The notes beneath the pieces were generated by a model. It was not told the DNA's origin and did no database searches. It saw nothing but the letters and a program-made list of their open reading frames with translations. A program made the position numbers and the translations under genes. A stretch of DNA of 64,000 bases, from assembly GCA_963788655.1 (NCBI GenBank), contig CAWBHS010000058.1, positions 32,001 to 96,000 on the forward strand, written 5' to 3'. This DNA comes from an uncultured Verrucomicrobiae bacterium (lineage in GTDB: Bacteria > Verrucomicrobiota > Verrucomicrobiia > Limisphaerales > JAFGQR01). Positions 27,673-56,999 of this stretch are shown here, in pieces. Every line of letters begins with the position of its first letter. The stretch's first letter is position 1.

Positions 27673-30600
27673 CTACTGACTGCTCACCCGGATGCGGTAA
27701 AACCGCGCTGGATGTTTTGGATCAAGCGGCACCGTGATAGTTTGTGAACCGGCGGCGAAGGTGAGGTTCGTCCAGTTCTGCCACGGGGTTTGCTCCGTCA
27801 GGTCATCTTTATACTCCACGATATGGTTTACTCCCGGAACGCTCTGGACGATGAAGCTCAAGGAGGTGCCATTGCCGGTAAGGAACGGCGGCTCAATCTC
27901 CGGCGCATCGGGGCCATCAACGACCGACTTCAGCAAAGTGTAGTGGTCGAGGAAGGTGCTGTTGATCCCCAGGAATTTTACGTCGAGCCGGCCGCCGTTT
28001 ACGTCCAGGAGGATCGAGCCGAGTTGATTCAGGGAAATGAAATGGGCCGGGTGATTCAACGGCCCACCCGTAATCTGGCCGCTACTGCCACCAACCATGT
28101 AAACGACGCCTTGCCCCTGGTCGTTTTTGTGATAGGCACCACTGTCCTCTTCTCGTCCGCTGCCCCCGTCGATTTTCATGGCCTCAGTGAGCGTGCTGGA
28201 AAGCCCATAATGACCATTCAGCAGATAGGAGCGTTCGAGGCAATGACTGTGGCCGGAGAGCACCAGGTCCACGCCATAGCTCTCCAAAATCGGGACGATG
28301 TTCTCGCGAAGCTCGATGAGTTCGGTCTCGCGATCGGAGTCGTGGCTGCCTTTCGTGTACGGCGGATGATGGAAGAAGACGACCACCCAATCCTGCATGG
28401 TGGCGGACAGATCGCTTTCCAGCCATTCGGCCATCGAGCTGGTGGCGCTGCGGGTGCTGGTCATCGAGTCCAGGCAGACGAAGTGGACGTTGCCGTAGTC
28501 GAACGAATAGTATTTTTCCGTTCCCGAGGCAATTCCGCCCGCCTCACCGTTCTGGGGCAGGGAAAAAATGTCGAGATACGGAAAGGAGGTGGCCGTGAAG
28601 GACTGATCGGTTTCGTGATTGCCGATGGTAGGCCACAGGAAGAGATTGCGCAGCGTGGAGGGATACATGTCAAACAACGCGATTTGATGCTGCTGATCGG
28701 TCCCGGCCGGATACGCATTGTCCCCCAGCATCATCCAGATGTCCGCGGGCCCGTTGGTGGCGGCAAAGCGGTAATACGCTTCGCGCACGTTGGCCTGATT
28801 GACCTCGCCGGACGCGCCGTAGCCGGCGGTGCCGGAGTCGCCCAACGCCCAAACGCGAATATGTCGGCGGGTGCCGGGCACCGGCGACGTGTTGAACCAA
28901 TAGTTGGAACCGGCCTTGGCGCCGCCCGCCAGTGTGTAGTCCGAACTGCCAATGGCGTAGTAGTATTGCGTGTCGGGCTGCAAGCCGCTGACTTGGACAA
29001 TGTGTTCCGTGGTGATCTCGTTTTGCACGGCGCGGTTCGTCAGACTGTCCAAGTCCGTACCGTAGAGCACAACACCATCCGAACTCTCGCTGGTACGCCA
29101 CCGCACGATGCCGCCGGTGGGGGTGCCGCTTTGGAGGTACGGACCTCGGGTGACCAACGGCAGCGGCAGGTTGGTATCCAGCAGATACGTCCACCCTTCC
29201 CCCGCAAACGGATTGGGCGGCGAAGCCAGGTCGTAAATGTCCAAGGGATCCGCCCAAGACACTTGCACCAGACCCGGCTCGGGTTGCTCGAACAGGAACG
29301 TGTATTCCACACCTTCGTTGCTGACGCTGCTGGCCGGCACGCCATTGAGCAACAGGTCAGCAGCGTCCAACCCCGCCACCCTTTCATTGAACGTCATAAG
29401 AATCCGCGTCAGATTTCGCAACGTTGCTTCCGGTGCCGGATTCACGTTCACCAAGGCCGGTGGAATACTGTCCACGATTTGGTAGGTCCAAGTCGCGCCG
29501 GGCCCGGTGGCATCAAACGGATTATTGACCGGCAAGGCCTGGTCATAAATGCCGTGGCCAGGCGCCCAGCTAACGACTGCCACCGAAGCGTTGGGCGGTG
29601 GAAAAGCAAAAGTATAGGTCGCGCCATCACCACTGACATTCGTCGCCGCCATGCCATTGATGAGCAGGTCACTGGCATCCACTCCCCGTACCGTTTCGGT
29701 GAAGGTAACGGTCACATGGTCAAAGACTGTCACCACGCCGTTCGTGGAAGGATCCTGCGTCGCCACGGTGGGCGGAGTGTGGTCCAGCAACGTGTAGTTC
29801 CACGTCGAGCCGGGGGCGGACGGGGCGAATGGCACCGGCGGATCTTCGGTGTCGGTAATCGCGAGGTCGGAGGCCCACGTTACAAAAACCAGTCCGTACG
29901 GCGGCTGCCCGAACGCAAACGTGTAGGTGTCGCCACTGCCGGTCACCCCGTTGGCGCCCACGCCATTGACTTTCATGTCCCCGGCTTTCACCCCCATCAC
30001 CGGCTCGCTGAACGTCACGGTGATCTGCGTTAGATCGTTGACGGTCGCACCTGCCGCGGGCATCTGGCCAACCACAATGGGCGCGCTGGGATCGAGCAGG
30101 TTGTACTGCCAGGTCGCTCCCGCGCCGGTTCCGTTAAATGTCCGCGCTGGGGTATCGAAGTCCGCGATGCCGTGGCTGGCGGCCCAGGTAATGGCCACCG
30201 TGCCGAACGTCGGTTGCGGGAAGCTGAAGGTATAGACCTCGTTTTCGGCACCGCTGGTGACCGAACGTCGCCGGCACGCCGTTCACCAGGAAGTCCGCCG
30301 CGTCCACACCGCTCACCGGTTCGTTGAAAGTTACGGTAACGTTCGTCAAGTCGAACCGGCTGCCCGCCGGCGGGTTGACGCGAATGACACCCGGCGCAAC
30401 CAGACTGGAATTGTACCGGTAGCAATTAAGCTGGGCATCGAAGTTGAAGTCGTCGTTGGTGGCCGCGTAATTGAAGGCCTGGATGGCCAGAACATTCGTG
30501 CCTTCGTGCAAATAACCAAACGGATCGGGCAAGGCGTAAATGACCGTCGCGGCTCCATACGGAGCCGTTTCGGCGACTTCCGATAGGGCCGTGCCATAGT

Positions 30601-33600
30601 AGGGCAGATCACCCAGCGAGACGTTGTAGCGATACACTTCAACGCCGTTGATCCAGGCGATGAATCCGTCGTCGCTCTGCGCTTTGAGCAGCAGGTTGGT
30701 GATGCTGAGCGCTTTCGTGACCTGGAATTCCTTGCGGAGGAAGAGGCTCGAGTAGTGCTCCCGCATGTCACTGAGCAGCGAGCCGCCTTGGTTGTAGCTT
30801 TCGTAGGGGTCGCCGTAGAACATCGGCGCTGGCAGATCGTCCCAACTCGAGGCATCGAAACCCGGCTCGCGCCAGGCGCTGGATGGTGCGGAAGCTTCGG
30901 CCAGGCCGCGTAACAGACGCCAGGCGCTGTTGGTCTGAATCAACACCGAATTCGCGTTGACCACATACGTCCACGTTGGTGGCGACGGCGCAAAAGCGTT
31001 CGCCGGCGTGGCCTGATCGGTAATGCCATGATTGGAGGCCCACCGCACAATCGTCAGCCCGTACGGCGGCGGCGGGAAGATGAAGGTGTAGGTGGAGCCG
31101 AATCCGGCCACGCCCGTGGCGGGCGCATTGCGCACCAACAGGTCGGCCGCATCCACGCCCACCACCGGTTCGCTGAAGACCACGGTGATTTGACTGAGGT
31201 TGGTCACGCTGGCGCCGACCGGCGGATCAAGCGCAAGCACTGTGGGCGCCACGTTGTCCGGGATCGTATAGCTCCAACGCGCGCCCGCTCCATTTTGATC
31301 GAACGGCAGCGAAGCCGGATAACCCTTGTCGGTGATCCCGTGCGCCGGCGACCAGGTGAGGTAGGTGGAGCCGGGCCCGGGCGGGGTGACGGTGAACGTG
31401 TAGTTGGATCCGTTGCCGTTCACCGCGATGGCCGGCGTGCCGTTGACCAACAAGTCGGCGGCATCCACGCCATATACATCTTCGCTGAACGTGACTTCAA
31501 TGGTCGTCAACTCGGCCAACGTCGCTCCGCGCGGCGGATCGATGACCGCAACGACCGGCGCGATCGTGTTGGTTAGCGGAGGAGTGATGATGACGGTGAA
31601 CACCGGGGACGTTGCCTGCAAGCCCGACGCGTCGAACGCCACCGCCGTCAAATCCGATACCCCAAAAGCGGCATCTGTCCAAACCATGCTGTAGGGGGAG
31701 GTGGCGTCGGTGCCAATCAACGCGCCGTTCGCCAGGAACTGCACGTTGGTGATCCCGGCCACCGAGCTGGCCGTGGCGGCAATCTCGAGATCGGTGAACC
31801 CGAAGAAGTCGTCTTCGTGCGGCTCGGTCAGTACGATGTATGGCTTGGCGCCGACTTCCTCCAATCGCACCGCCACCGGCGCGTAGGCATAAGGCCCGGG
31901 CGGATCATTGCCCGGGGCCGGTCCCTGATAAAGCGTGGATACGATGGTAAACGTGCCATCCACGCCCGGCGCAATGTCGTCCCAGCCCACCACGTCGCCG
32001 GTGGAGTTGTCGCCGGTGTTCATCGCCGCTTCATCCGGATACAATGCTCCCGGACTCGTCGTGCTGGTCAGCACGTTGGCGGTGTGCGCCGCCGTGAACG
32101 CCCGGGCGCCAATGATGGCGAACAACGTCCAGCGGTTCTTGAAATCCGCCACGCCGCCCACGGCGGTGCCCCGGAAGTTGTAGCGCCGGTTGGGATCGAG
32201 GCCGGAGAAGAAATGGAACACGACCGATTCCCGGTTCAACACAATGGCATGATTGGCCCCACCCGAACCGAAGTCGATGTAGCTGTTAAAAATGTCGTAG
32301 GCGGGCGTGCCCGATGGCGGCGCTCCGAATATCGGGTCGCCCATTGCGCCCAAGGCGAAAACGCTCAGGAATGCCGACACCGGTTGGCCGGAGGCAATGT
32401 TCCGGAGAATTCCTTCCTCCCCGGGAGCCCCATCTGCCGTGCCAAAGGCATTCCAGGCGCTGGCATAGGGATGGGTGTTGGGACCGGCGTAGTGATCGTT
32501 ATAGGCCACCCAGCCAGAGGTGCGCTCAAACACCGTCACGGTGATTGGTTTCGTGTTGTGCGCGCCGCCATTGTCAGTCGCCACCGCGGCAAAATGATAG
32601 ATACCGGGGGGCCGGCCGTTCACCTGGAACGTCAGCGCGTTGGTTGACGTAGCAAGCAGCGTGTTTCCTTCGAACAGGGACAGGTTGGTGACGGTACCAT
32701 CCGGGTCGGATGCTTCGACATCCAGGACGATTTGGGCGGGGTTAAAGAACCAGTCGCCATCGGCCACCTGAAGAAATTGGATCACTGGCAGTTGATTGCG
32801 AATGATCTCCGGCAGTCCCAGCAATTGGAGATCGAAACTCAGATCGGAGCTGTCGGGTGCTTGTTGATGAATTTCGACCGCCAGTAGATTGGTGCCCGCC
32901 ACCAAGTCAGCAATGTTCAGCGTGACCGTGTCCACCGTATCTTCCACGCCGAAGCCCGTGGCCAGCGTCGTGTACGTGATCGGCTCCGGCGCCGGTGGCA
33001 GATTGTCCGTGCGGAACACTTCCTTGCCGTTGAGATACACCACGCCACCGTCGTCGCGCAGAAGCGACAGCGTCAGGCTGCTAAAGGACGCCGCATTTTC
33101 GACGACAAACGCCCGCCGGAAGTAGGTCGTGATGTATTTATTATTTTCCTCGGGGCCGAAACTGACCACCGTGGTTTCGTCACCATCGCCATACCCCAGT
33201 TGGGCCGGACCGTTGCTCCAACCGCGGTCATCAAAGGCCGCGGCAAACCAGTTGGTGCCCTGGTCCGAACCATCGTCAAGATACTTCCAGTCCGAACCGT
33301 CCGACACCACCGGCTCGGCCACGGCAATCCAGACAAGCGTTGAGAGATACGTGTTCCCTAATTCGTCAGTACCCCGGGCACTCAACCGGTGCAATCCCGG
33401 AGTCACTTCACCCCAAACAGTGCTGTAAGGTTCGGTGTTATCTTCTCCGACCGTTTCGCCATTCACCAGAAACTCGACGTTCGTGATCGTGCCGGACGGC
33501 AGCACTGCCACTGCCCGGAGGGTGATCGGATTGGCGTTCAGAAACGTGTCACCGTCCGCCGGCGATACCAAGGTCATGCCTACATTGAACACCGCCACGT

Positions 33601-36190
33601 TGACAATGGCTGACGTTGCGCTCAGGCCGATTCCATCAGTTACGACCGCATACAGGTGGTTGGTGCCGGCTGGAAGATTGTTCGCCGTGACGCTGTACGG
33701 TTCGTTCGTTGACGTTCCAAGGAACAGTTCACCACTATAGAAATCCACTGTGACAACCGCCGCGTGGGGCGAACTGGCAGTCGCCGACAGCGTCACCTCG
33801 TCGCCCGTCATAAAGACACTGTTATTGGCCGGTTCGGTCAGGGTGACTGACGGCGGCATTTCCAGGTGCAACTCGATTGTGCCTGTGGCTGGCGGCGGCG
33901 GCGGAAAACCGAAATTACGCATACCGCCGATTTGAATTTGGTATTGCGTCCCCGCCTCCACATTGAAGGTCACCAGGCTCACGTCACTCGATCCGGGAGC
34001 GTTGTCGTTGAAGGCGACTTGGCGCAGATTGCTGACGTTGTTACCCGTATAAACGCCCAGGGACGTGTTGAAGCTGCTGCCAAACGTGTCAATGCGCACC
34101 GTTCCACTGATGGGCGCCGTCCAACTCCACCACAACGTCGCTCCGTAGCCTTGGAAGAAACTGCCCGTGGGTTCCCGGTTCTCGGTCGTGGCGCCGTTGT
34201 TGGAACCCGTGGCGCTGGCCACCGGACCGACCAGCGTAATGCGATTGTTAAAATTGTCATTGGCCAACGGATCATAAACGCCCGCCACCTGATTGGTCGC
34301 AGTGGAAGTGATTCTTCCCAGACTGTCGGTGGCGACCGCATGGATCGTGTGGCTGCCCAGCGCAATCGCAGGCACAACCAGGGTGTATGGAGCGGTGCTG
34401 ACCGTTCCCAGTGACAGTTCATCCAGGAAAAACTCGACGTTATCCACCGTCACTGGAAGGGCGACGGAAACAGTGGCGCGCGCGGTAAATCCAGCATTGG
34501 TCGCGATGTTCTGCCCGTTGTTCGGACTGGTCAGCGTCGCCGCCAGCGGATTGGGCAGGATGGTGATGACATTGCTGGTGGAGTTGGCTTGTTGCGCGTC
34601 CGGCAGGGAACTGTCCGTCGCGTGAACGTAACTGGTGTAGCTGCCTACCGGCAAAATGCCCAGGTTGGTCGCAAAGGGCGGCGTGTGCAGGGTACCGACC
34701 GGTAGGTCATTAGTGTAAAACGTCGCCGTGTAAGGCGCCGCGCCGCCGCCAACAAATGCACTGAGCGATACCGCTTCGCCATAACTGTAAATGGTGCCGT
34801 CCTCCGGGGACAGGATGGCCGCCAGCGGCCCGGTGATATGAATGGTGTGCATCGGCGAATTGCTCCCCCACCCCAACGCATCCGTCACGGTAGCCTGAAC
34901 GGTGTGATCCCCGACAAACAGCGGTCCAAAACTGTGCTCGTACGGCGTCTCAATCACCGGTTCACCATCGGCCACGTCGTCCAGGAAAAATTGCACGCTG
35001 TATGGCGGCAGCCCGCCAGCGACAATGACCATGCCTGGCACCACGACGTTATGATCAAACGAAGCATCCGGTTCCGGTTCCGCCAGCGTGACGGCGAGCG
35101 GATCGGCCACCAGAAACGTGTTGGTCGCTGAAACGGCAGTGGCCGGCGTCTCCGCGCTGTCAGTGGCCACCGCATACAAGCCGTAATTACCCGCTGGCAG
35201 GTCCGCCAATTCTATCGTGTACGGCGGTGTAGCACTCGATCCCGCGGAGGCGAACACATCATTGCCAATCCCACTGTTGGTAAAATATTCGACCGTGTAG
35301 GGCGCCGTACCACTGACGACGCGAACAGCAGTGCTGACGGGACTGCCCGCGACAAACACCGCGTCCGAGCCCGGCTCGTCCAGCAAACACGCAAAGGCCA
35401 CCGGCATGCCCGCCGTCACCTGCAAGGAGAAATTGTCAATCTCATTGGCCACGTCGTCTCCGAACCCCGCAGCATTATCGTCCACCCAGACCACATACAG
35501 ATTGGCTCCGTCCGGCCAATCCACGTCCACGCTGGCGCTCATCGGTGTCGTGCCGTCGGCTGAAGCCGTGGTATTCAAGGCCGGTACATTAGTCCAACTG
35601 CCGGCTTCGCCAGTGAGACTGAAATACACTCGGGTTCCTTGTCCGCTGTCCTCGGGAATCCCTTCACCCGCGAGGGTGAGCAAATAGCCGATCGTAAGTT
35701 GCGTGGCATTGGTTTTGGTGTTGTTCACGAACTGGCCCATCAGGACCGTGTAACGGTTGCCGGTAGGCCGGGTGAGCAGGTACAAGCCGCTGGAACTCCA
35801 CATCGCCGCTCCGTTCTTGGCCGGCGGATCCTCGGGATCGGACAGCGTAGGGGCGACCACGAGGTCGGCCGTAAGGTTGGCGTTTACGTCCGTGTCCATA
35901 TCGTAATTGTCCGACGCCGAACCCACAGCACTGTAAGTTGACCAGTCCGCGGCCACGGGTTGAAGCTCGAACGAATTGGTGTAGCCGGACCCGGCGTTCA
36001 CGCTGGCCGCATTAGCCCTGACCGTAAGGCACAGCGCCGCGACCAGAACCGCCATGGTCCAACGGCGCCGAAGCTTAAAGGCCAGAGCGACAACGGCGAG
36101 GGTACACATCAGGTTGCTCATGGGACTCCTGACACTGAATTGAGAAGGCACGGCCGGCGCCCGAAAATCATGGCTCAAACTTGGGTTCAT
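27673..36190 (-). CDS. Giant secreted protein (~2,840 aa): Ig-like repeats, beta-sandwich/lectin-like domains, purple acid phosphatase module, RFYR C-terminal domain; +1 indel near 30264
   Basis: Signal peptide ...VRANA. NGVPAT joins SVTSGAENEVYTFSFPQP after removing one T. All five PAP motifs present (GDSG, GDNAY, GNHE, FFHHPPY, GHSH). Confidence 0.88.
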
Positions 36191-36787: not shown

Positions 36788-36810
36788 GTTATTCACCGTT
36801 ATTCACCGTT
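36788..36810. promoter_or_regulatory. 10-bp direct repeat, possible activator binding site
   Basis: GTTATTCACC GTTATTCACC GTT in the divergent intergenic region. Confidence 0.4.
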
Positions 36811-36905
36811 TCCGATTGCAAAAACCTGTTCCCTCTTCGGCTGACGAGAGTTAATCTGCGCCCATGCCCGCTGCGACAATGGCACTGTCCGAACAAACTG
36901 GGAAA

Positions 36906-36920
36906 CGGCACAAAGTTTGC
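36906..36920 (+). promoter_or_regulatory. Putative sigma54 (-24/-12) promoter
   Basis: CGGCACAAAGTTTGC fits YGGCAC-N5-TTGC with GG-N10-GC spacing, 47 bp before the ATG at 36968. Confidence 0.55.
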
Positions 36921-36967
36921 CCCTGCTGTGTACGCCTTAATAATTTCACGCTGACGGCCACGACGTC

Positions 36968-39799
36968 ATGAATCCGTTTGCCCATTCTTTAAGCAACAAA
37001 CCGTCGTCATTGCGGAGCATGTTCTCCGGGCGGCTGGCTTGGCTGACGTTGGTGATCTGTCTGGGGCTCGGCTTGGTCGTAGTGGTGTGGCGGGAACGTT
37101 CACAACGGGCCGCCGCCCAGGCCCAAGCCCGCACCGAAGCCATGGCTCGCGGCTTGGCAATCGAATCACAATTCTCGCAAGCCACCGCGGCCCTTGAAGT
37201 CTTGGGAGCGCTGGTCAACCAAACCCGCGGTGTGCTGCCAAATTTCCCGCAAGTGGCGGCGCAGTTGTTGGCGGTGCATCCTGCGGTGGCTACGCTCGAA
37301 TTGCAGCCGCGCGGAGTGGTTGCCAACGTGGTGCCCCGTGCCGGTAACGAGCGGGCCCTCGGCTTCGACGTGCTCAAAGATCCGCAGCTCAGTCCCGGCG
37401 CCTACGCCGCCATCCGCGGGCGCCGCTTGACCGTCTCGGGACCGCTGCGGCTGCCGCACGGCGAAGCGGGCCTGATCGCGCGCCTGCCAATCTTTCAGCG
37501 CGGGCGGGACGGCAAAGAATATTTCTGGGGCTTCGTGGCGGCGTCGATCCGGCTGCCGGATCTCCTCGCGCGCGCTCGCTTGGCTGACTTGGTCGCGCGT
37601 GGCTACGATTACGTCTTCTACGGGCCACCGACCGCTCAACAGGCTGCCGTGAGCCTCGCCGCGCACGGCAAGGTGTCTTCCCGGAAGGCAGTGGTCCTAC
37701 CCGTCCACGCCCAGAACGTTCAGTTCGGTATTGCGGTCCAGCCGCGCGGCGATTGGTTCAACACGATGAAGTTGGCCCTGGAAATCCTGGCGGTCGGAGG
37801 ATTGGCAATAATGGTCAGCCTGCTAGTCAGTTTTTTCCGTAAAGGAAACGATTTGCAGGCGGCCTTCGCCCAAGCAAAAGCCGAACTGGCGCAGGTAGCT
37901 GCCGAACAGGAGCGGGGGCAGGACGAATTGCACTTTGCTCGCGAGGCGGCCACTGCGGCCCAGCAAGAGCTCGAGCAATTGAAAAGCAACGCGGCGGACT
38001 TGGGAGAGCAATTGGAGGAAGCCAGCCGAACCGCCGAAGCAGCAGCGAACGACCAAGCGGCCAAGCTGCGGCAAGCCCAGGCGACCAACAGCGAACTGCA
38101 AGCTCAAGCGGAAGCCGATACCCGCAACGCACGAACAACCGAAGAATCATTGCGCGCTCAACTCGCGGAAGCCAACACCACGATTGACAAGTTGCAAACC
38201 CAGTTAGAGGCCGCCATCCGCAATGGGGAAGAAGCCACGCGGACTGCCCAAGACAAATTCAATCAGCAAGCGCAAGTCAGCGCGGAGTTGGAGAGTCGCT
38301 TGCAGGAGGCTGCGGCTAATGCCCAGACAATGGAATCGGCCAGTGCCGCCAGACTGCAGGCGGCCGAGCAAACTATCGGCAATCTTGAAGCGCGCTGGGC
38401 GGCTGCAACTGAGGCTCCAACCGAGGTGGCGTCCGCCGCAGCCACGACAACTTCATCGGAGGAAGCCAACGATTCGACCGCCGGCGTAACCGGCTCAGAA
38501 GAAGTGAATGAACCCGAAACTCAGCCCGAGGAAGCCGACACCGATTTTGCCGGTTCGGCACCCCCAGCCGACCCTCCGGCTGCCCCCGTGGATGTCGCTT
38601 CCAACGAACGTGCTGCCGCCAGCGGATTTGATATTCCCGCAGCGGATGAAGCCGGTAACGAGCCTGGCCAAACCGACGAAATGCCTCCCGATCCCGACGC
38701 CGGTCATGTCGCAATCCCACCTGATACTGAGCGGCCGTCGGAAAACTCGTCGGACTCCGACGTTGGGGTTGAAGTTCCGCCATCCAACAATTTGGACGCC
38801 GCGCCGCCGGAAGTCAGGACTCCAAATCTCCCCCCCACCAAATCGGACAAGCCGGCCCGTCGCAGAAAGAAACGCGACAAGCACCAATTGAGTTTGTTCG
38901 ACGAGGAAACCGACGGTGTCCAAAGTGTGGCCGTGGACGAGCTTGCCTCGAAGCCGCCGACTCAAGAGCCCGCCGCCGAGACGCATCTGGCGGAGGCTAC
39001 CGCACCGGTTTCGTCAAATGCGCCGGTCGAGGTTTTGGCGCCCGAAGCCGGTTCCTCCTCAGCAACCGTTGAGTTCAGCCAAGTCAACGGAACGATCGGC
39101 GATGTCCAGCCATCGGCGTCTGAATCGCCCGAGCTGAAAACCAATAAAGCGGCTGCCTCATTGGCAGCGGATCTCGACTTGCCGAAAATTGACGGGCTCA
39201 ATCCCAGGGAAGGCTTGGTGCGTTTTGATGCGGACCCGAAGCTGTATCTGAAAGCGCTGCGGCAATTCGTCGATCAACACACCCGCGCACCGGAACAAAT
39301 CCGCGACTTTCTGGTGCAAGGCGATGCCACCGGCGCGCAGCGACGGACGATTGTTTTGAAACACGCCGCCCAAGCGCTTGGCGCCGGGCAGGTCCAGGTG
39401 ACCGCCGCCAATTTGGAGCGCGGCATCCAGGCGGAATCCGATCCTACCGACATTGAGACCCTTTGGGCCGAACTGGAAGACGTGTTGAACAGTTTCATCA
39501 CTGATCTCAAATCCGCTTTGAAACCCCGGGAGGATAAGCCGGCAAAACTCCGCCAACTCCCGCCGACACCGCCGGTCGATCTCGCCCAACTCCGCACCGC
39601 GATCAAGCAGATTCTGCCGTTGCTGGCCGACGAAGATCCCGGTGCCAAAGACTGTCTCAAGGATAATCGCACCACCTTCCGATCCGCCTTCACGCCGGAG
39701 ACGTTTGTAGAATTTGAACAATGCGTCAAGCAACGCAGCTTCGCGGCCGCTTTTGAACAATTGAAGAAAGCAGTCAAGAAACACGGCATCCACGTTTGA
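36968..39799 (+). CDS. Membrane protein: TM-CHASE-TM, coiled coil, acidic disordered linker, degenerate HPt domain
   Basis: GNERALGFDVL, VSGPLRL, RLPIF...FWGFV (CHASE). C-terminal IDGLNPREGLVRF...LYLKALRQF...LKHAAQALGA (HPt-like). No kinase or receiver motifs. Confidence 0.8.
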   Translation: MNPFAHSLSNKPSSLRSMFSGRLAWLTLVICLGLGLVVVVWRERSQRAAAQAQARTEAMARGLAIESQFSQATAALEVLGALVNQTRGVLPNFPQVAAQLLAVHPAVATLELQPRGVVANVVPRAGNERALGFDVLKDPQLSPGAYAAIRGRRLTVSGPLRLPHGEAGLIARLPIFQRGRDGKEYFWGFVAASIRLPDLLARARLADLVARGYDYVFYGPPTAQQAAVSLAAHGKVSSRKAVVLPVHAQNVQFGIAVQPRGDWFNTMKLALEILAVGGLAIMVSLLVSFFRKGNDLQAAFAQAKAELAQVAAEQERGQDELHFAREAATAAQQELEQLKSNAADLGEQLEEASRTAEAAANDQAAKLRQAQATNSELQAQAEADTRNARTTEESLRAQLAEANTTIDKLQTQLEAAIRNGEEATRTAQDKFNQQAQVSAELESRLQEAAANAQTMESASAARLQAAEQTIGNLEARWAAATEAPTEVASAAATTTSSEEANDSTAGVTGSEEVNEPETQPEEADTDFAGSAPPADPPAAPVDVASNERAAASGFDIPAADEAGNEPGQTDEMPPDPDAGHVAIPPDTERPSENSSDSDVGVEVPPSNNLDAAPPEVRTPNLPPTKSDKPARRRKKRDKHQLSLFDEETDGVQSVAVDELASKPPTQEPAAETHLAEATAPVSSNAPVEVLAPEAGSSSATVEFSQVNGTIGDVQPSASESPELKTNKAAASLAADLDLPKIDGLNPREGLVRFDADPKLYLKALRQFVDQHTRAPEQIRDFLVQGDATGAQRRTIVLKHAAQALGAGQVQVTAANLERGIQAESDPTDIETLWAELEDVLNSFITDLKSALKPREDKPAKLRQLPPTPPVDLAQLRTAIKQILPLLADEDPGAKDCLKDNRTTFRSAFTPETFVEFEQCVKQRSFAAAFEQLKKAVKKHGIHV

Positions 39800-40345: not shown

Positions 40346-40577
40346 CTCCAAACGTTCTGTTCCCAACTGCCGGCCAGATGTCCGACGCACGTTCGGTCAG
40401 TACCATCACCTTTGAACTCACACTCCAAATTTGCCAGTTGACAGCCCAGAGCCTGGCTTTACGGTTCCAGAGATTCTTATTAAAAGGATAGGCCGGACTG
40501 CTGGATAATTGGGCAGCCTCTTGGGGTTGGGCTCAACGGCAGCAGGCCACCAACAAACCAAACAATCCGAAACCGTC

Positions 40578-43796: not shown

Positions 43797-44341
43797 AAAT
43801 CGTGTTTCAGCGATCGTGTTCTTCCCAACCGCAGTTCCCGAAAAGGGTGCTCGCAGTGGCCACTTTCAGGTCCACCATCCGCGCCTGGAATTCGCCGCCA
43901 GTCATACACGATCCACGCTCCGTCACGCAATTCCTTTAAATTGGAAACGTCCGGGCGTCCGGGCTGTCGGCAAGGCGGCGGTTTCCACCTCACGCTCGCG
44001 GAGTGACTGACGCGGCTCCAGCCATGGCTCCCGAAGCGGGCGCGTTCCGTTCGGAATGCAATAACACTGGACAAGCGAACGACTTGTCGCTACTGTTCGG
44101 GCGTGTTTCCACCGAATTTCGCAGGTGCTTTATGGCATTTAACGGCCTGCACTGGGCAGCATTCGCAACGATTCGCTGCCACTCCGGCAGTTTCTGGACG
44201 CCCCTCCGCTGCCGGATTGGCCACGTCAAAACGCCTCGATTCGGCGGGAAACCAAGTGGTGTAGTTGTTGCCGAAACCCTCGGCTGTTTGTTCACGTTTA
44301 GTGTCTTGAAGGCAATTCATTGCCGGTCGTTTAGAGTCATC

Positions 44342-47300: not shown

Positions 47301-50300
47301 GCCTGACCTCGATCCAGGTCGCGTTCAGCGAACCAGTCACTGGCGTGGACGCCGCCGATCTGCTGGTCAACGGCGTACCAGCTACGCAATTAATTGGTGC
47401 TGGCACGCTGTACGTTTTCAGTTTCCCTCAGCCGGACTACGGCCCGGTGGCAATCACCTGGGTCAGCGATCCGGGCATCATGGATACCGGTGTGCCCACC
47501 CTGGCGTTTGATCCCACCGGCGCAGGCGCAACGTGGAATTACAATCTGATCGACAGCACCCCGCCCACGCTGATGGCGATTAGTCCATCCGCCGGTTCCA
47601 GCTTGACGAATCTGACCGCGGTGCAAGTCACGTTCAGCGAACCGGTGATGGGCGTAAACGCCAGCGACCTGCTGGTCAACGGCAATCCGGCCATCGGCTT
47701 GGGAGGATCGGACGCCAATTACACGTTCTCCTTCCCGCAACCGCTCTATGGCAACGTCAATTTCACCTGGGCCAGCGGCCACGGCATCGCGGATTCGTCC
47801 TCGAATCCTTTTGACGGCAACGCTCCGGGCGCGACCTGGCAATACTACCTCGAGGCGCCGCGTACCGTCCTGGTGGCCACCAATGCCACCTATCGCCTGT
47901 TCGAGGGACTGTCCGAAGCGTCCGATCCGATGGACGCCTGGCGCGCGCCCGATTTTAATGATTCGTCCTGGACCGAGGCGCCCGGGCCGTTCTACTACGA
48001 CTCCAGCGGCACGTATTACGGCAACACCCTGCTGGCCAACATGCCGGGGCAGTATTTGACCATCTACCTGCGCTATCCGTTCGTGGTGAATAATCCTGAA
48101 ATCCTGACCAATCTCGTGTTCGTTTCCCGATCTGACGACGGCTTCGTGGCCTGGTTGAACGGGCAGGAAATCTTCCATTCGCCCACCGTGCCATACGAGG
48201 AAATTCCCTACACCTACCCGAACAGCATCTATGTGACGAGCGCCAACGAACCGTTGCCGTTCATCACCAACACCATTGCCGTGCCCTCCACGGTGTTGGT
48301 TCCGGGAACCAACTGGCTGACCATCCACGCCTGCAACACCAGCCTTAGCAGCAGCGATTTCATGATCGACTGCCAACTGTATGTGACCGCGCTCGATCCG
48401 TCGGTTTCGCCGCCGGTCATCAGTTCCGTCAGCCCACCCGCGGGCGACGTGTTCAATCTCAACTCGATAACGGTGCGGTTCTCGGAAGCAGTCGCCAACG
48501 TCAATGCGGCGGACTTGCTCATCAACGGCGTGGCGGCGACGGACCTGACCGGCGCCGGCGACACTTGGACGTTTGACTTTCCGCAACCCGATTACGGGCC
48601 AGTCAGCGTCACCTGGGATGCCAACCAGGGCATCATGGACTTGGATGATCCGCCCAAACCGTTTGATGGAACCGCTCCCGGCGCGACCTTCCAATATTCG
48701 TTGCTCAACCCGAACGCGCCGACGGTGCTCGGTCAGAATCCGCTGGCCGGCGCCACCATCAACAACTTGACGCAAGTACAGGTCACCTTCAGCAAGGCGG
48801 TCCAGGGTGTGGATGCGGCGGATCTATTGGTGAATGGGGTGGCCGCGACGTCGGTCACTGGCACTGGCGGCGCACGGACCTTCACGTTGGCGCAACCGGC
48901 GTACGGTTTGGTGACCGTCACGTGGGCCGCCAATCACAACATCACCGATACGGAGAGCCCGACCAATCCCTTCGACGCCTCGCGGCCGGGCGCCACGTGG
49001 CAGTACACGTTGATTGACCAAACGCCGCCAACGATAGTTTCCCAAACTCCCGCCGCCGGCACTTCCGTGACCAACCTGACGGAATTGAGCGTCACCTTCA
49101 GCGAATCCGTGATGGGCGTAAACGCGAGCGATCTGCGCATCAATGGTTCACCCGCCACGGGGGTGGATGGTTCAGGCGCGCAATACACGTTCACTTTCCC
49201 GCAGCCCAACGCCACCATCGTCAACATTACCTGGGCGCCCGCCCATGGCATCACCGACCTGGCCGAGGTGCCGAACCTGTTCGATGGGACTGCTCCCGGC
49301 TCGACGTGGGTTTATTACACGCCGGACAATGTGGCGCCCACCGCGGCCAGCATTGATCCGCCGCCGGGTGCTACCATTCGGTCGCTCTCACAAATCTCGG
49401 TGTTGTTCACCGAATCGGTCAGCGGAGTCGATGCCAGCGATCTATTGATCAACGATGAACCGGCGCCCAGCGTCGTGGGCAACGGCGCGGGTCCCTACGT
49501 TTTCCAATTTGCCCCGCCGCCCACGGGCGAGGTCCACGTCGCCTGGGCTTCGGCGCACGGGATCCGCGATTCGGCTCAGCCGCCCAACCCGTTTACCGGA
49601 GGTGCCTGGGGGTACAACTTCAATCCCAACGCCCGGTTTGAAGGCTCCGTCGTCTTCAACGAAATCATGTATTCGCCCTATTCTACAGAAGACGCCGACG
49701 AATGGATCGAGCTTTACAACACCACTGCCGACACCATCAACCTGAGCGGTTGGCGTTTCAGCCGCGGCGTGACGTTCACCTTCCCGAACGTCTCCGTGCC
49801 GCCGCACGGCTATCTGGTCGTGTGCGCCAGCCTCGCGGCCTTCCAGGCGAAACATCCGAGCGTAGCCAACGTGGTCGGTGATTGGGTGGGCCGCTTGAGC
49901 AACATCGATGAGAGCCTCGAACTGAAAGACGCCAACGGCAACGTCGTCAGCCAGATTCATTATGCCGACGAAGGCGATTGGGCGACGCGCGTCAGTGGTG
50001 ATGGCCTCATGACGGTTCACCAGTTGACCAGCAGCGGCACGACGGCGCGCGCCACGGCTTTGGGCATCTACCAAAATGGCGATCAGATGACCATTTCCGG
50101 TGCCGATCAGCCGGAATACAACGGGACGTATTCCATCTCCGGCGTCTCGTGGAACGGCCGGGCACCAGTCACCTCCTTCACCTACAACATGCCCAGTCCC
50201 GCTTCGTCACCGGCCACCGGCTATATCGTTTGCCGCCAGGAAACCGATCTGGGAGTGCGCGGCTGGTCGTGGGCTTCTTTGGCGGACGGCTTCGGGCGCT

Positions 50301-53300
50301 CGATAGAATTGTGCAATCCGGAGTTGGTGACAGGCAATGGGCAAAACTGGCAGCCGAGCCTGACGCCCGAGGGCACCCCGGGACAGCCCAACACCGTGCT
50401 CACCAATGACGTCGCACCGATCATTTCCGACGTGTTGCACTCGCCGTCCGTGCCCAAGCCGGCGGATACGGTGTTTGTGACCGCCCACGTGCTGGACGAG
50501 GATAGCATCGGCCTGACGGTGGACTTGTTCTATCGCAATGCCAGCACCACTTCACCAGGCGCCTTCACCCGCGTGGACATGTTCGATGACGGTCTGCACG
50601 GCGACGGCCAGGCCAAGGACGGTCTTTACCGCAGTTCCGTGCCGGCCCAGGGCAACGCGACGATCATCGAGTTTTACGTGCGGGCCACCGACGTGAACAA
50701 CAATGTCCGCACCTGGCCCGCTCCCGCGCTGATGGCCGATGGTTCCTGGACGCAGGAGGCGAACGCCCTGTATCAAGTCGATGACGATCTGGCGCCAGCT
50801 AGCCCCGCCAACGCCACGCAACCGTTCTATCGCATCATCATGACCGAAACCGAGCGGCGGCGCTTTGACAACATCAACCGCGAAAGCGACGCCTGCATGA
50901 ACGCCACTTGGGTGACTTACGATGTCGATGGCTATCAAGTTCGTTATAACGCGGACGTGCGCATCCGTGGCGCCGGATCGCGCGGTCGTCCCGTCCCAAA
51001 CAACCGCGTCAATATTCCCTCCGATCGCCGGTGGAAAGGCCAGCGTGAAATCAACCTCAACACCCAGTATATCCATGCCCAGTTGGCCGGCAGTTCCCTG
51101 TCCGCCAAGGCGGGCATGCCCGCGGCCCGCGGCCGCGTCGTCCAAGTCCGCTTCAACGGTTCGAATCGGGCGAGCAGCTTGCCGGCGGGCCAGAGCGGAA
51201 GCGGCGACGGCTTTGGCAGTTACTACCATTTTGAAGCCTTCAATGGAGATTGGGCGCAAAATCTCTTTCCGCTGAACAGCGGGGGCAATATCTATCGCGG
51301 CTCCAAGTATCCGTGGAACGCCAACCTTGATTACCTCCTGGGCTCGACGCCTCGTCACCAACACCGGCCTCGATTTTGTCAACTACGTCAACCACGGTTA
51401 CAGCAAAGCCTCCAACCACGGGGAGAACGATTGGACCGATCTGTACCGCCTCACCTGGGCGCTGACGATGATTCCCAATGACGCAGACTACGTCCAGGCA
51501 GTCAGCACCAACATGAATCTCGAACTGAGCATGCGCTTCTTCGCCCTCTGCAACGCCATCGACTACCGCGAAACCTCACTCTGCATTGGCGTTGGCGATG
51601 ACTACGCCATGTACCGCGGCACTACCGATCCGCGCTTTACTTTCCTGCCGCACGACTTCGACACCATCATGGGACAAGGGGACACCAGCGGTTCGACCAG
51701 TCGCTCGATTTGGACCATGGTGGATAGTCCCTCGACCACCGATCCCAGTCAGCGGGCCAACTTCCTGGCGCGTTTCATGCGCCATCCGAAGTTTGCGCCG
51801 ATCTATTTCCGCGAACTCAAACGCCTGTGCGACACGGTGCTCCTGCCGGAGGAATTCAATCCGCTGCTCGACGAAACGCTTGGCGGTTGGGTGCCGGAGA
51901 ATACGCGCACTTCCATGAAGAACTTCATGGCGCAACGCCGCGCATCGATTTTGTCGCAACTGCCGCTGACCTACACGGTGAACGTGCCGCTCAGCCAATC
52001 CAGCGGTTACTATCGCAGCACCAGCGCCACAGCCACCCTCAACGGCACGGCCAACGCCCTCGACACCGCCACAATTCTGGTCAACGGCGTCAACGCCAAT
52101 TACACGGTGTGGCAAGGCACTTGGACCAGCAGTGTCGCCCTGCAACCGGGCGTCAACCGCGTCGTGGTTCAATGCCTCGATACCAATGGCGTGCCAACGT
52201 ACGCGCAATCGGTCGAAATCTGGTATGACACGGGCCTCGGCACTCCCGTCTCCGGCAGCATCGCCGCCAGCACCGGTTGGTCGGCGGCCAGTGGTCCGTA
52301 TCATTTGACCGGCAACCTGACGATCAATTCCGGCGCCACGCTCACCATTCAGCCCGGCACGACGCTCTATCTCGATTCCGGCGTCAACCTCACCGTGGCC
52401 AACGGCGGGCGCCTCGTAGCCGAAGGCACGGAACTGGCACCGATCCATTTCATGCGGCCGCCGGGCACCTCGGGGAGTTGGGGTGGAATGACGATCAACG
52501 GCGGGGCCAGTTCGCCCGAAACTCGCATTGCCTACGCGCATTTCCAAGGCAACGGCTCGACCGCCATTCATTCTTCGGGTGGCACCGTCTTCCTGGATCA
52601 TCTGACGTTCGGCTCGACCGGCCACCAATACGTCTCGTTGGATGGTTCGTCGTTCGTCGTCAGCAACTGCGAGTTCCCCACCCCGACCGGTTCATTCGAA
52701 CCCGTCCATGGCACCGGCGGCATCAAGAGCGGCGGCCGGGGCATCTTCCTGCGTAACTTCTTTGGCGCGGCGAACGGCTACAATGACGTGGTCGATTTCA
52801 CCGGCGGCAATCGGCCCAGCCCCATCGTGCAGTTCATCAATAATGTCTTCATTGGCAGCGGGGATGACCATCTGGATCTCGACAGCACCGACGCCTGGAT
52901 CGAGGGCAACATCTTCATGCATGCCCACAAGAACGGTTCGCCCGACACCGCCAGCGCCGTCAGTGGCGGCAACGACGACGGACAGGCTTCCGAGATTACG
53001 ATCATTGGCAACATCATTTACGACTGCGACCAGGCTGCGATGGCCAAGCAAGGTGATTTTTACACGCTGATCAACAACACCATCGTTCACCAAACCCACC
53101 AAGGCGGTCTGGATACGGAAGGCGCCGTCGTCTGCGTAGCCGACGACGGTACCGCGCAAGCCGCGGGGATGTATCTCGAGGGGAACATCCTGTACGACGT
53201 GGAACAACTGGTGCGCAACCAAACCACCGCCGTGGTGACGTTCACCAACAACTTGATGCCACTGCCGTGGGCCGGCCCCGGCGGCGACAATTCAAGCGCC

Positions 53301-56300
53301 GATCCGAGGTTGCAATACATCCCGCAAGTGGCGGAGACGACCTTCACCAACTGGGCCTCGGCGCAAGTGCTGTGGGATTGGTTCCGCCTGCGCCCCGGCT
53401 CTCCCGCCGCCGGCACCGGCCCCAACGGTCAGGACAAAGGTGTGCCGCTGCACCTGACCAGCAACTCAATCCTTCAGCCGCTCCTCGGCGTGTCGATTGC
53501 CGGCGCACCCGTCGGCAGCACCCCGCAAACCAGTGCCACGTTGACGATTGGTGTGAACCGCATCGGCAGCGGCCTTTCCGCAACGGGTTGGCCCGACGGC
53601 TCCGGTTACACCCATTACCGCTGGCGCTTGGATGGTGCCGTCTGGAGTGCGGAGACGCCATTGGCCACGCCCATTTCGCTGACCGGCCTGCCCAACGGGC
53701 CCCACTATGTTGAAGTGATTGGCATGAACGACGCAGACTCGTATCAAAACGACGAAGTCCTGGGCCCGGACGCTGGGATCACCCGCACGCCGACTTGGAT
53801 CGTGAGTCCGGCGGCCTCGGATGTTCGGCTGAATGAAATCCTGGCGCGGAACGACTCGGCGGTGCCCGTTGAAGGACGGTTCCCCGACTTGATCGAACTC
53901 TACAACGCCGGATCGGCTCCGGTGGACCTCACGGGAATGGGCCTCACCGACCAACGTGGAACACCGGACAAATTCCTCTTCCCGGCGGGAACCATTCTGG
54001 CCGCGCACGAATACCTGGTGCTGTATGCCGACAACGAAACCACCCCGGCGGGATTGCACCTCGGGTTCGCGCTCAACGCGGACGGCGACGACGTTTCCCT
54101 GTTCGGAACGAACGGTGTCTTGCTGGACTCCGTCGCCTTTGGCGCGCAATTGGCGGACCGCTCGATTGGCCGGCTGGCGGATGGACAATGGGCGTTGGGT
54201 CAACCCACTTTCGGTTCGGTCAATGTGCCGGTCGAGGTCGGCGACGAACACGCGCTCCAGATCAACGAATGGCTCGCGAGCAGTCCGCTGTTCGGCTACG
54301 ACTTCATTGAACTCTACAATCCGGGTGCGCTGCCCGTTTCGCTGGGTGGACTGTTCTTGACGGACAATCCGATTGACTGGCCCGACCGCCATGCCATTGC
54401 GGACCTCACGTTCATTCCGGCCTACGGCTACCGCGTGTTCATCGCGGACGGCCAACCGGGCAGCGGTCCCGATCATCTCAACTTCGCGTTGTCCGCGGAC
54501 CTGGGCACCATTGCCTTGTTCGATACGTCGCTCGGGTTGATTGACTGCGTGTATTATCCGCCGCAACAGGCGGACATTTCGCAAGGCCGCTCGCCGAATG
54601 GCGGAATGAACATCGTCACGTTCTCTCAACCAACGCCGGGCTCCGCCAATCCTGGTCCGACGTTCGAACTCGGCTTCGGCCTCGCGCTGAACGAACTCAT
54701 GGCCAACAACAGCAGTTACACCGATGCCGATGGCACCATCACCGATTGGGTCGAACTCTACAACGGCACCAACGTCACAACCTCGCTCGCCGGCATGAGC
54801 CTGAGTGACAATCTGGCCGATCCGCGACGCTGGGAATTCCCGGCCGGTGTCTCGATCCCTCCTTTCAGTTACTTGAAGATCCGGTGCGAAGGCAGCCTGC
54901 CCGCCTCGACCAACAATGAAGCCTTGCTCAATACCGGCTTCGGCCTCAAGGCCAGCGGCGGCGGCCTGTATCTCTTTGACACACTGGCCAACGGCGTCGG
55001 TCTGCTGAGCGGAATTACCTACGGTCTGCAGGCGGTTGATTTCACCATCGGTCGCGTGCCGGATGGTTCGACCAATTGGACCCTCACGCTACCCACGCCC
55101 ACCACCGCCAACATCGCCGCCAGCTTGGGCTCGCCGGCGCTGGTGCAGATCAACGAGTGGATGGCCGAACCCACTTCCGGTGCCGATTGGTTCGAACTCT
55201 ACAATCCAAGCGGCCAACCGGTCGCCTTGGGCGGCATGTATCTGACCGACAATCTGACGCAGCCGACGAAGTCCCGCATTCCGGCGTTCTCCTACCTCGG
55301 GGCTGGGACCAACGGGTGGCAGAAATTCGTTGCCGACAGCGATCCCGCCGCCGGCGCCGATCATGTCGATTTCAAGATGAACGGCGACGAAGGCGAAGAA
55401 CTGGGATTGATTACCGCGGCGGGCGTGTGGATTGATGCCGTGCAATACCTGCCCCAACTTCCCGGCGTCTCGGAAGGTTCCTTCCCCGACGGCAGCGACA
55501 CCATCGTCCGCTTCCCCGGCACCGATTCGCCCGGCGAATCCAATTACCGCTGGTTGACGGACGTGGTGATCAACGAAGTGATGACCCACACGCCCATCGG
55601 CTCGCCCTTCGAGGATGCCATCGAATTGCACAACGTCACTGACGCTTCGGTGGACATCAGCAGTTGGTGGCTCAGCGATTCCCGGAACTTCCTGCAAAAG
55701 TTCCGCATCCCCGACGGCACGATACTTCCCGCCCAGGGTTACCAGGTCTTTTATGAAAACCAGTTCAACTTTGATCCAATCAATGATCCGGAGCGCAGCT
55801 TTGCCTTGAGCGGCGCGCACGGGGATGATGTGATATTGTCATCCGCCGACGCCACCGGCGAGTTGGATGGTTACCGGACCCGCCAGAAATTCGGAGCCGC
55901 CAGTGCCGGGGTGTCCTTGGGCCGCTACGTGGACAGCCTGGGGCAACCGCAGTTCGTGGCGTTAAACGCCCGGACCTTTGGGGCGGATGATCCGGCCACG
56001 GTCGAAGAATTCCGGATGGGCACCGGCGAATCGAACGCGTATCCGCTGGTCGGTCCCATCGTGATCAGCGAAATCATGTTCAATCCACCGCGGCTGGGTA
56101 CGAACGACAACGTCCGCGACGAGTATATCGAACTGTACAACTCCAGCATGGTACCGGTGCCCTTGTATGATTCGATTTATCCTACCAACACCTGGAGCTT
56201 CCGCGACGGAGTGGATTTCACCTTCCCCACCAACATGTCAATCGCCTCGGGCGACTTCGTGTTGGTCGTGAGCTTTGATCCGGTCACTGACCCCGATTCG

Positions 56301-56999
56301 CTGGCGGCCTTCCGCGCCACGTATCAATTGAATGCCAGCGCCACCATTGTCGGCCCCTACAGCGGCAAATTGAACAATGACGGCGAGAAGCTTGGCCTCT
56401 ACAAACCGGACGTGCCCGTGAACGAAACCAACCAGGACGACAGCGTTACCGTGTTTGTGCCCTCGGTGCTGGTCGAACAGGTCGATTATCTGCCCGGTTT
56501 GCCGTGGCCGATTGGCGCCAGCGGGACGAGCAACTCGTTGCAGCGCGTGAGTGCCGCGGAGTTTGGGAATGATCCCGCGAACTGGATCGTCGGCGCGCCC
56601 AATCCCGGACCGCAAGCCGTCGTGCTCGACAGCGATGGCGACGGCATGCCCGACGCGTGGGAAGACGCCAACGGACTGAAGGCGAATGATCCCACCGACG
56701 CCTCGGAAGACCCCGATGGTGACGGCCTGACCAACCTGGAAGAATACCGGGCGGGGACCAATCCGCACGACGGCACCAGCAGCCTCGCCGTGACGATCAC
56801 CACCAGCGGCGGCATGGAACTAAGCTTTGTGGCGGTCGCGGACCATTCCTACACGGTGGAATACCGGGATTCGTTGAGCGAAGGAACCTGGTTGCCACTC
56901 GAACTCGTGCCGGCCCTCAGCACTCCGGCCACCCGCGTGGTCAACGTGTCCGATCCGGAATTCTCGGCCACCCGGTTCTACCGCATCCGCACGCCGTAA
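44342..56999 (+). CDS. Giant secreted protein (~4,220 aa): Ig repeats, LamG, CotH kinase, parallel beta-helix, multiple lamin-tail domains, TSP3-like repeats, RFYR C-terminal domain; +1 indel near 51350
   Basis: Signal peptide MKFHRIF...GLAA. LamG motifs WNHAAVTFDG/LDEVRIW; LTD motifs NEIM/EWIELYN repeated; CotH-like VRIRGAGSR, GDDY, PHDFD; DSDGDGMPDAWE. LLGST joins LVTNTG after removing one C. Confidence 0.88.

Follow-up and report, generated by a model that had tools for sequence, protein, structure and literature searches.

Bacillus CotH, whose structure has been solved for the B. cereus protein (5jd9/5jda), is a stand-alone enzyme of ~360 aa, and known purple acid phosphatases (PAPs) measure ~300-570 aa. 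The stretch of DNA considered here, referred to as the window, comprises 64,000 nucleotides from an uncultured Verrucomicrobiae bacterium (positions 32,001 to 96,000 of contig CAWBHS010000058.1, assembly GCA_963788655.1), and it contains two giant genes, A and B, in which relatives of these enzymes are built into far longer proteins. In gene A, the enzyme is a C-terminal head that follows >2300 residues of immunoglobulin (Ig)-like and jelly-roll modules, with a tail domain behind it. In gene B, a CotH domain of the same Pfam family as the Bacillus protein, which keeps the YALY strand and the D-x-D motif (HDFD as against WDYD), lies around residue 2200 of a predicted secreted protein of 4219 codons, between lamin tail domains (LTDs). 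The two genes share a stalk and are best read, with moderate confidence, as two members of a very large family in Verrucomicrobiota whose proteins are giant, secreted and modular, and as lying near each other because members of the family cluster. Their proximity would then stem from that clustering and not from a dedicated kinase-phosphatase unit.

Other described systems resemble these genes in part. Passages of PMC6085458 describe bacterial LTDs as mainly accompanying hydrolases, including calcineurin-like phosphoesterases, or as forming tandem repeats, and treat their role as not settled. ExeM of Shewanella oneidensis has an LTD on a secreted phosphate-ester enzyme, which is like the layout of gene B. 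However, ExeM combines one LTD with nuclease domains, whereas gene B has seven LTDs around its CotH domain and no nuclease, and the PAP heads of the family described below are without LTDs among the 120 giant PAP proteins listed. CotH has also been met away from spores: according to passages of PMC7112168, a cotH-like gene stands beside the Gram-positive pel loci of non-spore-formers, together with genes for a polyphosphate polymerase, DUF4956 and DUF4832, and a function other than coat phosphorylation was suggested. These pel-associated CotH proteins are linked to extracellular polymer production, but unlike gene B they are not giant stalk proteins.

The two genes and their common stalk

The window is part of a 122.6-kb contig in an assembly of 8.96 Mb (115 contigs, 86% complete, 5.6% contamination), and the host is a soil-type Verrucomicrobium. 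Both genes are read in two frames, from open reading frames (ORFs), Pfam matches and local hidden Markov models (HMMs). For gene A, the features are as follows.

27673-36190, minus strand: gene A, giant (predicted) secreted stalked purple acid phosphatase, ~2839 codons in two frames (ORFs, translation, Pfam)
30134-36190 (2018 aa) and 27673-30198 (841 aa), minus strand: the two overlapping ORF pieces of gene A (ORF list)
36005-36190, minus strand: N-terminal leader with a hydrophobic, signal-peptide-like stretch (...MAVLVAALCLTVRANAAS), by eye
32813-33304, minus strand: first jelly-roll ("sandwich") domain, outside the cassette (local HMM, E 3.3e-20)
31817-32518, minus strand: Ndom, an all-beta domain common to gene B (local HMM, E 3.8e-126; BLASTP)
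29164-31564, minus strand: cassette of Ig, Ig, jelly roll (30407-30946) and four Ig modules (BLASTP, module HMM)
27964-29133, minus strand: PAP head, Pur_ac_phosph_N and Metallophos (Pfam)
27676-27918, minus strand: C-terminal tail domain, ending RFYRIR (alignment, local HMM)

Gene B, on the other strand, most likely starts with the Met at 44342, which opens a stretch that looks by eye like a signal peptide.

44342-56999, plus strand: gene B, giant (predicted) secreted stalked LTD-CotH protein, ~4219 codons in two frames (ORFs, Pfam)
44003-51481 and 51327-56999, plus strand: the two ORF pieces of gene B (ORF list)
44423-45157, plus strand: Ndom, right after the signal-peptide-like start MKFHRIFHVRAILAVLLLPACFEGLAAEG, the latter by eye (local HMM)
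45716-46261, plus strand: Laminin_G_3 domain (concanavalin-like), among Big_7 Ig repeats (Pfam, 71.5 bits)
47249-49630, plus strand: cassette of Ig, Ig, jelly roll (47867-48400) and four Ig modules (BLASTP, module HMM)
49640-49963, plus strand: first LTD (Pfam LTD, 67.2 bits)
50900-52016, plus strand: CotH kinase-fold domain with the motifs YRETSL, GVGDDYAMYRG and HDFDT, split by a frame change (Pfam, profile)
53808-56500, plus strand: six further LTDs, limits approximate (Pfam LTD in 6 stretches, 235.2 bits; local HMM)
56709-56771, plus strand: bacterial TSP3 repeat, calcium-binding type (Pfam, 27.6 bits)
56772-56996, plus strand: C-terminal tail domain, ending RFYRIR (alignment, local HMM)

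In Pfam terms, gene A reads as Big_7 Ig repeats, Big_12/Big_5 Ig modules, Pur_ac_phosph_N and Metallophos, and gene B as Big_7 repeats, Laminin_G_3, Big_12/Big_5 modules, LTD, CotH, six further LTD stretches and a TSP3 repeat. What the two have in common is, above all, the part here called the cassette. BLASTP aligned residues 1470-1975 of A with residues 1013-1513 of B (42% identity, E 2e-97), and residues 1-344 of the C-terminal piece of A with residues 1534-1876 of B (52% identity, E 5e-104). This corresponds to a colinear block of ~800 aa, 31564-29164 in A and 47249-49630 in B, in which the module HMM finds two Ig modules, a sandwich and four more Ig modules in both proteins. A preliminary description of the locus had proposed just such a block, followed by a complete PAP in one protein and an LTD/CotH module in the other, with an RFYR domain at the end of each; BLASTP, the module HMM and Pfam bear all of this out, and the two C-termini align with 36% identity over 69 residues (E 3e-07), both ending in RFYRIR.

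The jelly roll in the cassette of gene B could be modelled well (pLDDT 91.3, 23 sequences), and a fold search with the model gave 238 matches at E<=0.001, among them 6sd0_A (E 4.9e-07, TM 0.53). The modelled domain resembles the N-terminal sugar-binding domain of GH2 beta-galactosidases and is galactose-binding-like. Ndom, the second domain common to A and B, is ~240 aa long and all-beta; no fold match was found at E<=0.001 with what was a poor model (pLDDT 66.8, 7 sequences), and a protein-atlas search yielded nothing beyond weak leads and clusters without a name (best score 0.92). At another locus (L110, G000:C81:126000-130200), a further copy of Ndom immediately precedes an NPP-type phosphodiesterase head, and the Ig cassette is absent. 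Ndom therefore travels with phosphoesterases outside the stalk family too.

The tail domain, ~75 aa ending in RFYR, is generic in this organism: it is found in 28 of its ORFs and forms the extreme C-terminus in 27/28 (e.g., C9:55206-62144 and C57:209496-223511). In this lineage it may act as a signal for sorting or anchoring. Neither the tail domain nor the cassette matched a model in NCBIfam. Together, the stalk of Ig and jelly-roll modules and the tail domain would place the heads at the surface of the cell or farther out, possibly attached to a glycan.

A family with exchangeable heads

How widespread is the cassette? When that of gene B was searched against the protein database (8000 scored, E<=0.001), it matched 1203 proteins. 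The best 120 of these were listed, with 73-100% of the cassette covered (nearly all >=97%) at 45-69% identity, and their sources include metagenome-assembled genomes (MAGs) of Verrucomicrobiae and Limisphaerales as well as Fontisphaera persica. By local HMMs, the order of two Ig modules, sandwich and two to four Ig modules recurs in nearly all of the listed proteins. Behind the cassette stands one of three kinds of head: an LTD, a CotH domain and a variable number of LTDs (the majority), a PAP, or a phosphodiesterase of NPP/alkaline-phosphatase type. Heads were classified with local HMMs, and a tree was made with FastTree, for 121 cassettes (119 of the listed proteins and the two of the window). 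Of these, 83 bear LTD-CotH, 17 PAP and 2 LTD only; the other 19 have an NPP/alkaline-phosphatase-type head or no recognised head. For this third group the Pfam lists give PF01663, PF01676 or PF00884, and Phosphodiest was confirmed by Pfam in two loci.

On the cassette tree, gene A is sister to a PAP paralogue on contig C9 of the same genome (74% identity, support 100), within a clade of mostly CotH proteins. Gene B is sister to P0009, a CotH protein of another genome (69%, support 99), and then to a protein with an NPP head; P0009 is intact, has 4153 aa, and is colinear with gene B over the full length. Head type changes 13 times across the tree, where the minimum possible is 3 and the mean for shuffled heads is 35.5. 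As judged from this tree, heads have been exchanged repeatedly, at least 13 times. The combination of one stalk with different heads is therefore a recurrent process of the family, and A and B are not derived from each other. The preliminary description was right to see paralogous scaffolds with swapped heads, although this is a property of the whole family and not of this pair. An origin of A and B by local duplication followed by a head swap was rejected, as the two fall in different clades.

Within the genome itself, 44 modules match the stalk Ig HMM; they are spread over nine contigs and 15 ORF pieces, or ~13 genes by count. By Pfam, all but two of the stalk genes have LTD/CotH; the exceptions, gene A and the C9 paralogue (2313 aa), both have a PAP. 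The third PAP gene of the genome, on C74, is without the stalk.

Relatives in the database, giant proteins of Verrucomicrobiota that include three from Fontisphaera persica, go under automatic names such as "Ig-like domain-containing", "lamin tail domain-containing", "acid phosphatase type 7" or "metallophosphoesterase"; they share almost the entire cassette with A and B, and their heads are of the same types. A literature search found nothing on the cassette with its three heads, on CotH with lamin tail domains in Verrucomicrobia, or on CotH with purple acid phosphatase. Nor was anything found on this architecture in the literature on Fontisphaera, Limisphaerales and Pedosphaerales, as judged from the listing and the openings of abstracts. 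As far as searched, one cassette with only CotH, PAP and NPP heads, in genomes with ~40 secreted CotH genes each, is undescribed.

Several of the cassette loci (L025, L042, L050, L060, L064, L066, L069, L070, L072, L074, L075, L078 and L088) come from records titled Bifidobacterium, Bifidobacteriaceae or Akkermansia. Since the genes in them are typical Limisphaerales-type cassette genes, these bin labels look doubtful.

The phosphatase head

The PAP head of gene A follows directly after the cassette and scores 37.8 bits for Pur_ac_phosph_N (cut-off 30) and 57.6 bits for Metallophos (cut-off 21.5). In PAPs, the blocks DxG, GDxxY, GNH(D/E), VxxH and GHxH carry seven metal ligands, including the Tyr of GDxxY, and in gene A all five blocks can be read in the translation, as GDSG, GDNAY, GNHE, FFHH and GHSH. 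The nearest solved structures are 6gja and 6git (both "Purple acid phosphatase", E 4e-18), and the GNHE and GHxH blocks align with those of 6gja; the PAPs 4dhl and 1qhw are further solved relatives. By its domains and metal-ligand blocks, the head is a complete purple acid phosphatase. Gene A would accordingly be classed, from its family, as a putative phosphomonoesterase displayed on a stalk, where it would free phosphate from organic phosphate esters outside the cell.

A related genome, G015, has two PAP-head matches 4.7 kb apart (C4:149921-155878, minus strand), both in open frames of 2992 aa, with two small CotH genes 6.5 kb away. The two matches are possibly one giant protein with two phosphatase heads.

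The CotH head

Homology of the gene B head to CotH is established by profile. Pfam gives 34.2 bits on the second frame piece alone (cut-off 23.8) and 61-136 bits for intact paralogues. A profile of the stalk-type CotH domains matches 5jd9 over nearly the whole domain (E 1.8e-09), and the canonical small CotH paralogues of the same genome match it at E 1e-27. A profile is needed for this, since a phmmer search of solved structures with the first piece of gene B found only Ig-type domains and no CotH. LTD membership is likewise clear, with Pfam LTD above its cut-off in both ORF pieces. Gene B would thus be a displayed CotH-fold enzyme flanked by seven LTDs.

Does this enzyme have a working active site? 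In B. subtilis CotH, which has CotB and CotG as substrates, the D228Q and D251A variants are catalytically inactive according to passages of PMC7821199. Judging by spacing, the counterparts in 5jd9 would be the Asp in NFDGF for D228 and the first of the two in WDYD for D251. In an ungapped alignment with 5jd9, the position of the catalytic Asp is Ile in the window, and in the 66 stalk-type domains it is N (48), R (9), V (4), I (2), T (2) or S (1), never Asp; an invariant DD stands where 5jd9 has HN. In a profile-profile alignment with the canonical paralogues (probability 98.9, two-residue gap), it is an invariant Glu (YxETSL) that falls on the catalytic Asp, while the DD pairs with NN and the second Asp of HDFD with the invariant Asp. 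The metal-binding Asp, equivalent to B. subtilis D251, is present: HDFD in the window aligns with WDYD of 5jd9, and HDxDT is found in 66/66. The Glu of ETSL, the two Asp of GxGDDY and RF are also each found in 66/66 (with GD, 65-66/66), in proteins that are otherwise ~50% identical. Such strict invariance of acidic and Gly residues at the catalytic-loop and metal positions points to catalysis or to metal or nucleotide binding. As far as the alignments tell, the site is remodelled but strongly constrained; it cannot be called dead, nor can the status of a protein kinase be read from it.

The preliminary description took CotH proteins to be kinases that act outside the cytoplasm. This premise does not agree with the validated Bacillus CotH, which phosphorylates coat proteins inside the mother cell, that is, in the cytoplasm, where ATP is available. 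We know of no ATP source for a protein secreted into soil.

CotH is strongly expanded in this order, with 38-52 matches per genome in several members (39 in G001, 42 in G015, and up to 52 in one relative) and none in 8/31 genomes. Most of the matches are in giant ORFs.

Are the two genes a pair?

The preliminary description further proposed that the two proteins form a dedicated pair, one writing and the other erasing an extracellular phosphorylation. Neither copy number nor distribution fits such a pair. Against 38 CotH domains that score above the cut-off, there are just 3 PAP genes in this genome. Among 31 related genomes, 23 have a CotH match and 27 a match to the PAP piece of gene A (P0002); two of them, G005 and G026, have relatives of the PAP head (E 1.5e-151 and 1.2e-147) and no CotH match. 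A third, G014, has 26 CotH matches, and none of its listed matches covers the PAP head (100 further matches are not listed). The cassettes of A and B, moreover, are not closest relatives.

The neighbourhood of the two genes has to be set against the tendency of the family to cluster. In this genome, 17/38 CotH domains have another CotH within 15 kb, compared with 4.0 on average and at most 14 when the domains were placed at random 500 times. Gene A lies 15.2 kb from the CotH domain of gene B; one of the three PAP genes is within 15.3 kb of a CotH domain, and 10.5% of the genome is that close to one. No CotH is present on the 106-kb contig of the C9 PAP paralogue, and for the PAP gene on C74 the nearest one is 31 kb away. 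The proximity of A and B does not exceed what clustering of the family would give. Synteny and co-occurrence, which had been suggested as a check on the proposed pair, thus speak against it, as do the Pfam lists for giant PAP proteins: CotH (PF08757) or LTD (PF00932) occurs in 0/120 listed of 786 found. In short, neither genome co-occurrence nor a neighbourhood beyond clustering was found, nor a PAP-CotH fusion among the giant PAP proteins listed, and a dedicated writer/eraser pair is not supported.

Family clustering does not account easily for everything, however, and a number of observations weigh against it as the whole explanation. They come in part from loci found with the cassette profile (80 of 321 relatives kept, 77 loci fetched, 45 of at least 13 kb). 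Among loci of this length, 3/8 with a stalk-PAP have an LTD/CotH gene in the 10-kb flank, in tandem at L029, convergent at L050 and two genes downstream at L053, and the only locus with an NPP head, L072, has the NPP gene followed by LTD genes. Conversely, PAP or NPP is nearby in 5/40 CotH/LTD loci. These counts are lower bounds, because flanks of 10 kb would miss an arrangement like that of the window. G001, a genome of the same genus, has giant genes of both kinds, each intact, with the PAP gene 0.8 kb upstream of the CotH gene; as this locus is identical with L029, the pair is counted once. Also, one protein, P0106 (L038:2-11149, plus strand), combines cassette, LTD, CotH, three LTDs and an NPP head in one open frame that takes up a whole 11.2-kb contig; since this is a single MAG contig, an assembly chimera is not excluded. 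All heads found on the cassette among the 120 listed proteins handle phosphate esters, whereas a neutral display scaffold might be expected to bear glycosidases or proteases too. Finally, phosphate scavenging by gene A is a role suggested by its family, and gene B may really be broken in this organism.

Could the heads, then, be coupled in function without being paired gene by gene? The same stalk might aim CotH and PAP or NPP heads at one extracellular substrate, such as a phosphorylated matrix glycan, a protein or extracellular DNA, to which one would add or transfer phosphate and from which the others would remove it. The restricted repertoire of heads, the natural CotH-NPP fusion and the neighbours seen in the window, at G001/L029, L050, L053 and L072 all speak for such coupling, and the invariant acidic residues of the stalk-type CotH, as read from the alignment, argue for a working catalytic site. 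It is also in keeping with passages of PMC6085458 in which LTDs accompany calcineurin-like phosphoesterases and extracellular nucleases. On the other hand, there is no one-to-one pairing of CotH and PAP; PAP occurs without CotH on the C9 contig and in G005 and G026; none of the listed giant PAP proteins has CotH or LTD, and few CotH/LTD loci are near PAP or NPP; the cassettes of A and B belong to different branches; and a source of extracellular ATP is lacking as far as is generally known. Phages add nothing firm to this. In Bacteroides phage crAss002, the gene directly before the 2622-aa gp20 is gp19, in which Pfam finds Metallophos (30.3 bits) and, weakly, LTD (25.5 bits, cut-off 34.3), but CotH was not confirmed in gp20, where Pfam finds leucine-rich repeats only and hhalign against canonical CotH gives a probability of 0.07. 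A tblastn search of phages gave 2 weak, unannotated matches to the PAP head and none to canonical CotH.

On balance, functional coupling appears rather unlikely, and membership of a clustering family is preferred. The preliminary description had also considered a stalk spread over many unrelated enzymes, with no co-occurrence of kinase and phosphatase. The stalk did prove to be family-wide and without pairing, but among the 120 listed proteins the enzymes on it are restricted to phosphate chemistry. Because of this restriction and the one CotH-NPP fusion, a looser functional link is kept open.

Frame changes

Each gene is broken once in this assembly, A at ~30264 and B between 51338 and 51366, and needs a frame change to be read through.

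30262-30268, minus strand: frame change of gene A, with a single surplus base in the stalk's third Ig module (sequence; soil-metagenome contig)
51338-51366, plus strand: frame change of gene B, inside CotH (sequence; comparison with paralogues)

It might be supposed that these changes are real and that one or both genes are decaying pseudogenes, non-functional here. The break in gene B lends itself to this most readily: the region has ~13 residues more than in the paralogues, which is more than a simple one-base error gives, so that the break is possibly more than a one-base indel, and no near-identical contig was found across 51338-51366 among the soil-metagenome runs compared with gene B. 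For gene A, however, a soil-metagenome contig (run X2, 151 nt, depth 2.6, with two other differences) is without one base at 30264, and in the frame downstream of the break the Ig module resumes perfectly (...SVTSGAENEVYTFSFPQPTFGTVAITW...). This contig points to an intact gene A in nature, although it is thin evidence. The domain motifs on either side of both breaks are intact. Furthermore, other giant genes of the family in this 115-contig assembly are also in 2-4 overlapping frame pieces (contigs C10, C60, C72, C74 and C87; loci L002, L005-L007, L009 and L010) and are single frames in relatives, which suggests frequent indel errors in the assembly. Intact relatives, with frames of 2806 and 4386 aa, are found in G001. 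Because of the metagenome contig for A, the other split family genes and the intact relatives, the frame changes are more likely assembly errors than gene decay, less certainly so for B, and decay of one or both genes is considered improbable.

Least probable of all is that the proteins are non-catalytic adhesin fibres, with the CotH fold of gene B as a binding module and the whole protein as a surface fibre for attachment, as reported for fungal CotH invasins (according to the abstract of PMC9973265, a host protein is bound by certain CotH proteins of fungi, which serve as its receptors): a fibre-like build (dozens of Ig-like modules, a jelly roll of sugar-binding type, LamG, TSP3 repeats and a tail domain) and a very high CotH copy number (38-52 per genome in several relatives), of a kind common for surface proteins, would suit such a role, but the strict invariance across 66 proteins of ~50% identity points to catalysis or to metal or nucleotide binding, and the sister heads PAP and NPP are plain enzymes.

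Neighbouring genes

Three genes lie between A and B.

36968-39799, plus strand: CHASE-domain sensor protein, 943 aa (Pfam)
40509-42857, plus strand: Peptidase_C13-like protein, 782 aa (Pfam)
42903-43796, minus strand: ThuA-like protein, 297 aa (Pfam)

Since these three are unrelated to the giant genes and separate them, A and B have no promoter region in common. Directly downstream of gene A, and overlapping each other by stop and start, are genes for a 417-aa TPR protein (26374-27627, minus strand) and for a 539-aa protein with a HupE/UreJ_2 domain (24758-26377, minus strand). Further along, at 19104-21521 and 21560-23833 (both minus strand), there is an 805-aa protein with a LuxE acyl-protein synthetase domain and a weak Fe-ADH match, which adjoins an AMP-binding enzyme and a family-2 glycosyltransferase. 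This group is possibly a lipid or polymer modification cluster, unrelated to the finding on A and B.

Three soil-metagenome runs, all from one study, matched the window, with shares of 0.06-0.07 of the sampled words. No matching RNA sequencing runs were listed.

Implications

A more far-reaching proposal is that the cassette marks an extracellular phosphate-ester toolkit of soil Verrucomicrobiota. The CotH heads, dozens to a genome and with a remodelled Glu/Asp-Asp site, would act in it as phosphotransferases on matrix glycans, proteins or extracellular DNA, with a donor other than cytoplasmic ATP, and the PAP and NPP heads would reverse the reaction or harvest the phosphate, so that the whole would amount to a bacterial cycle of extracellular phosphorylation. 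This is speculative, and on present evidence doubtful.

If A and B are, as preferred here, members of a clustering family, then abundant soil Verrucomicrobiota would possess stalked exoenzymes that make up a very large family, one that has not been described so far. Phosphatases and phosphodiesterases on fibres of several thousand residues would bear on the mining of organic phosphorus. The CotH head is the more interesting point: there are ~40 copies per genome, all predicted to be secreted, with an invariant site unlike that of the Bacillus kinase and with a stalk that is common only with phosphoesterases. The family offers many natural variants, including a CotH-phosphodiesterase fusion, with which the role of a kinase fold outside the bacterial cell, and its phosphate donor, may be probed.

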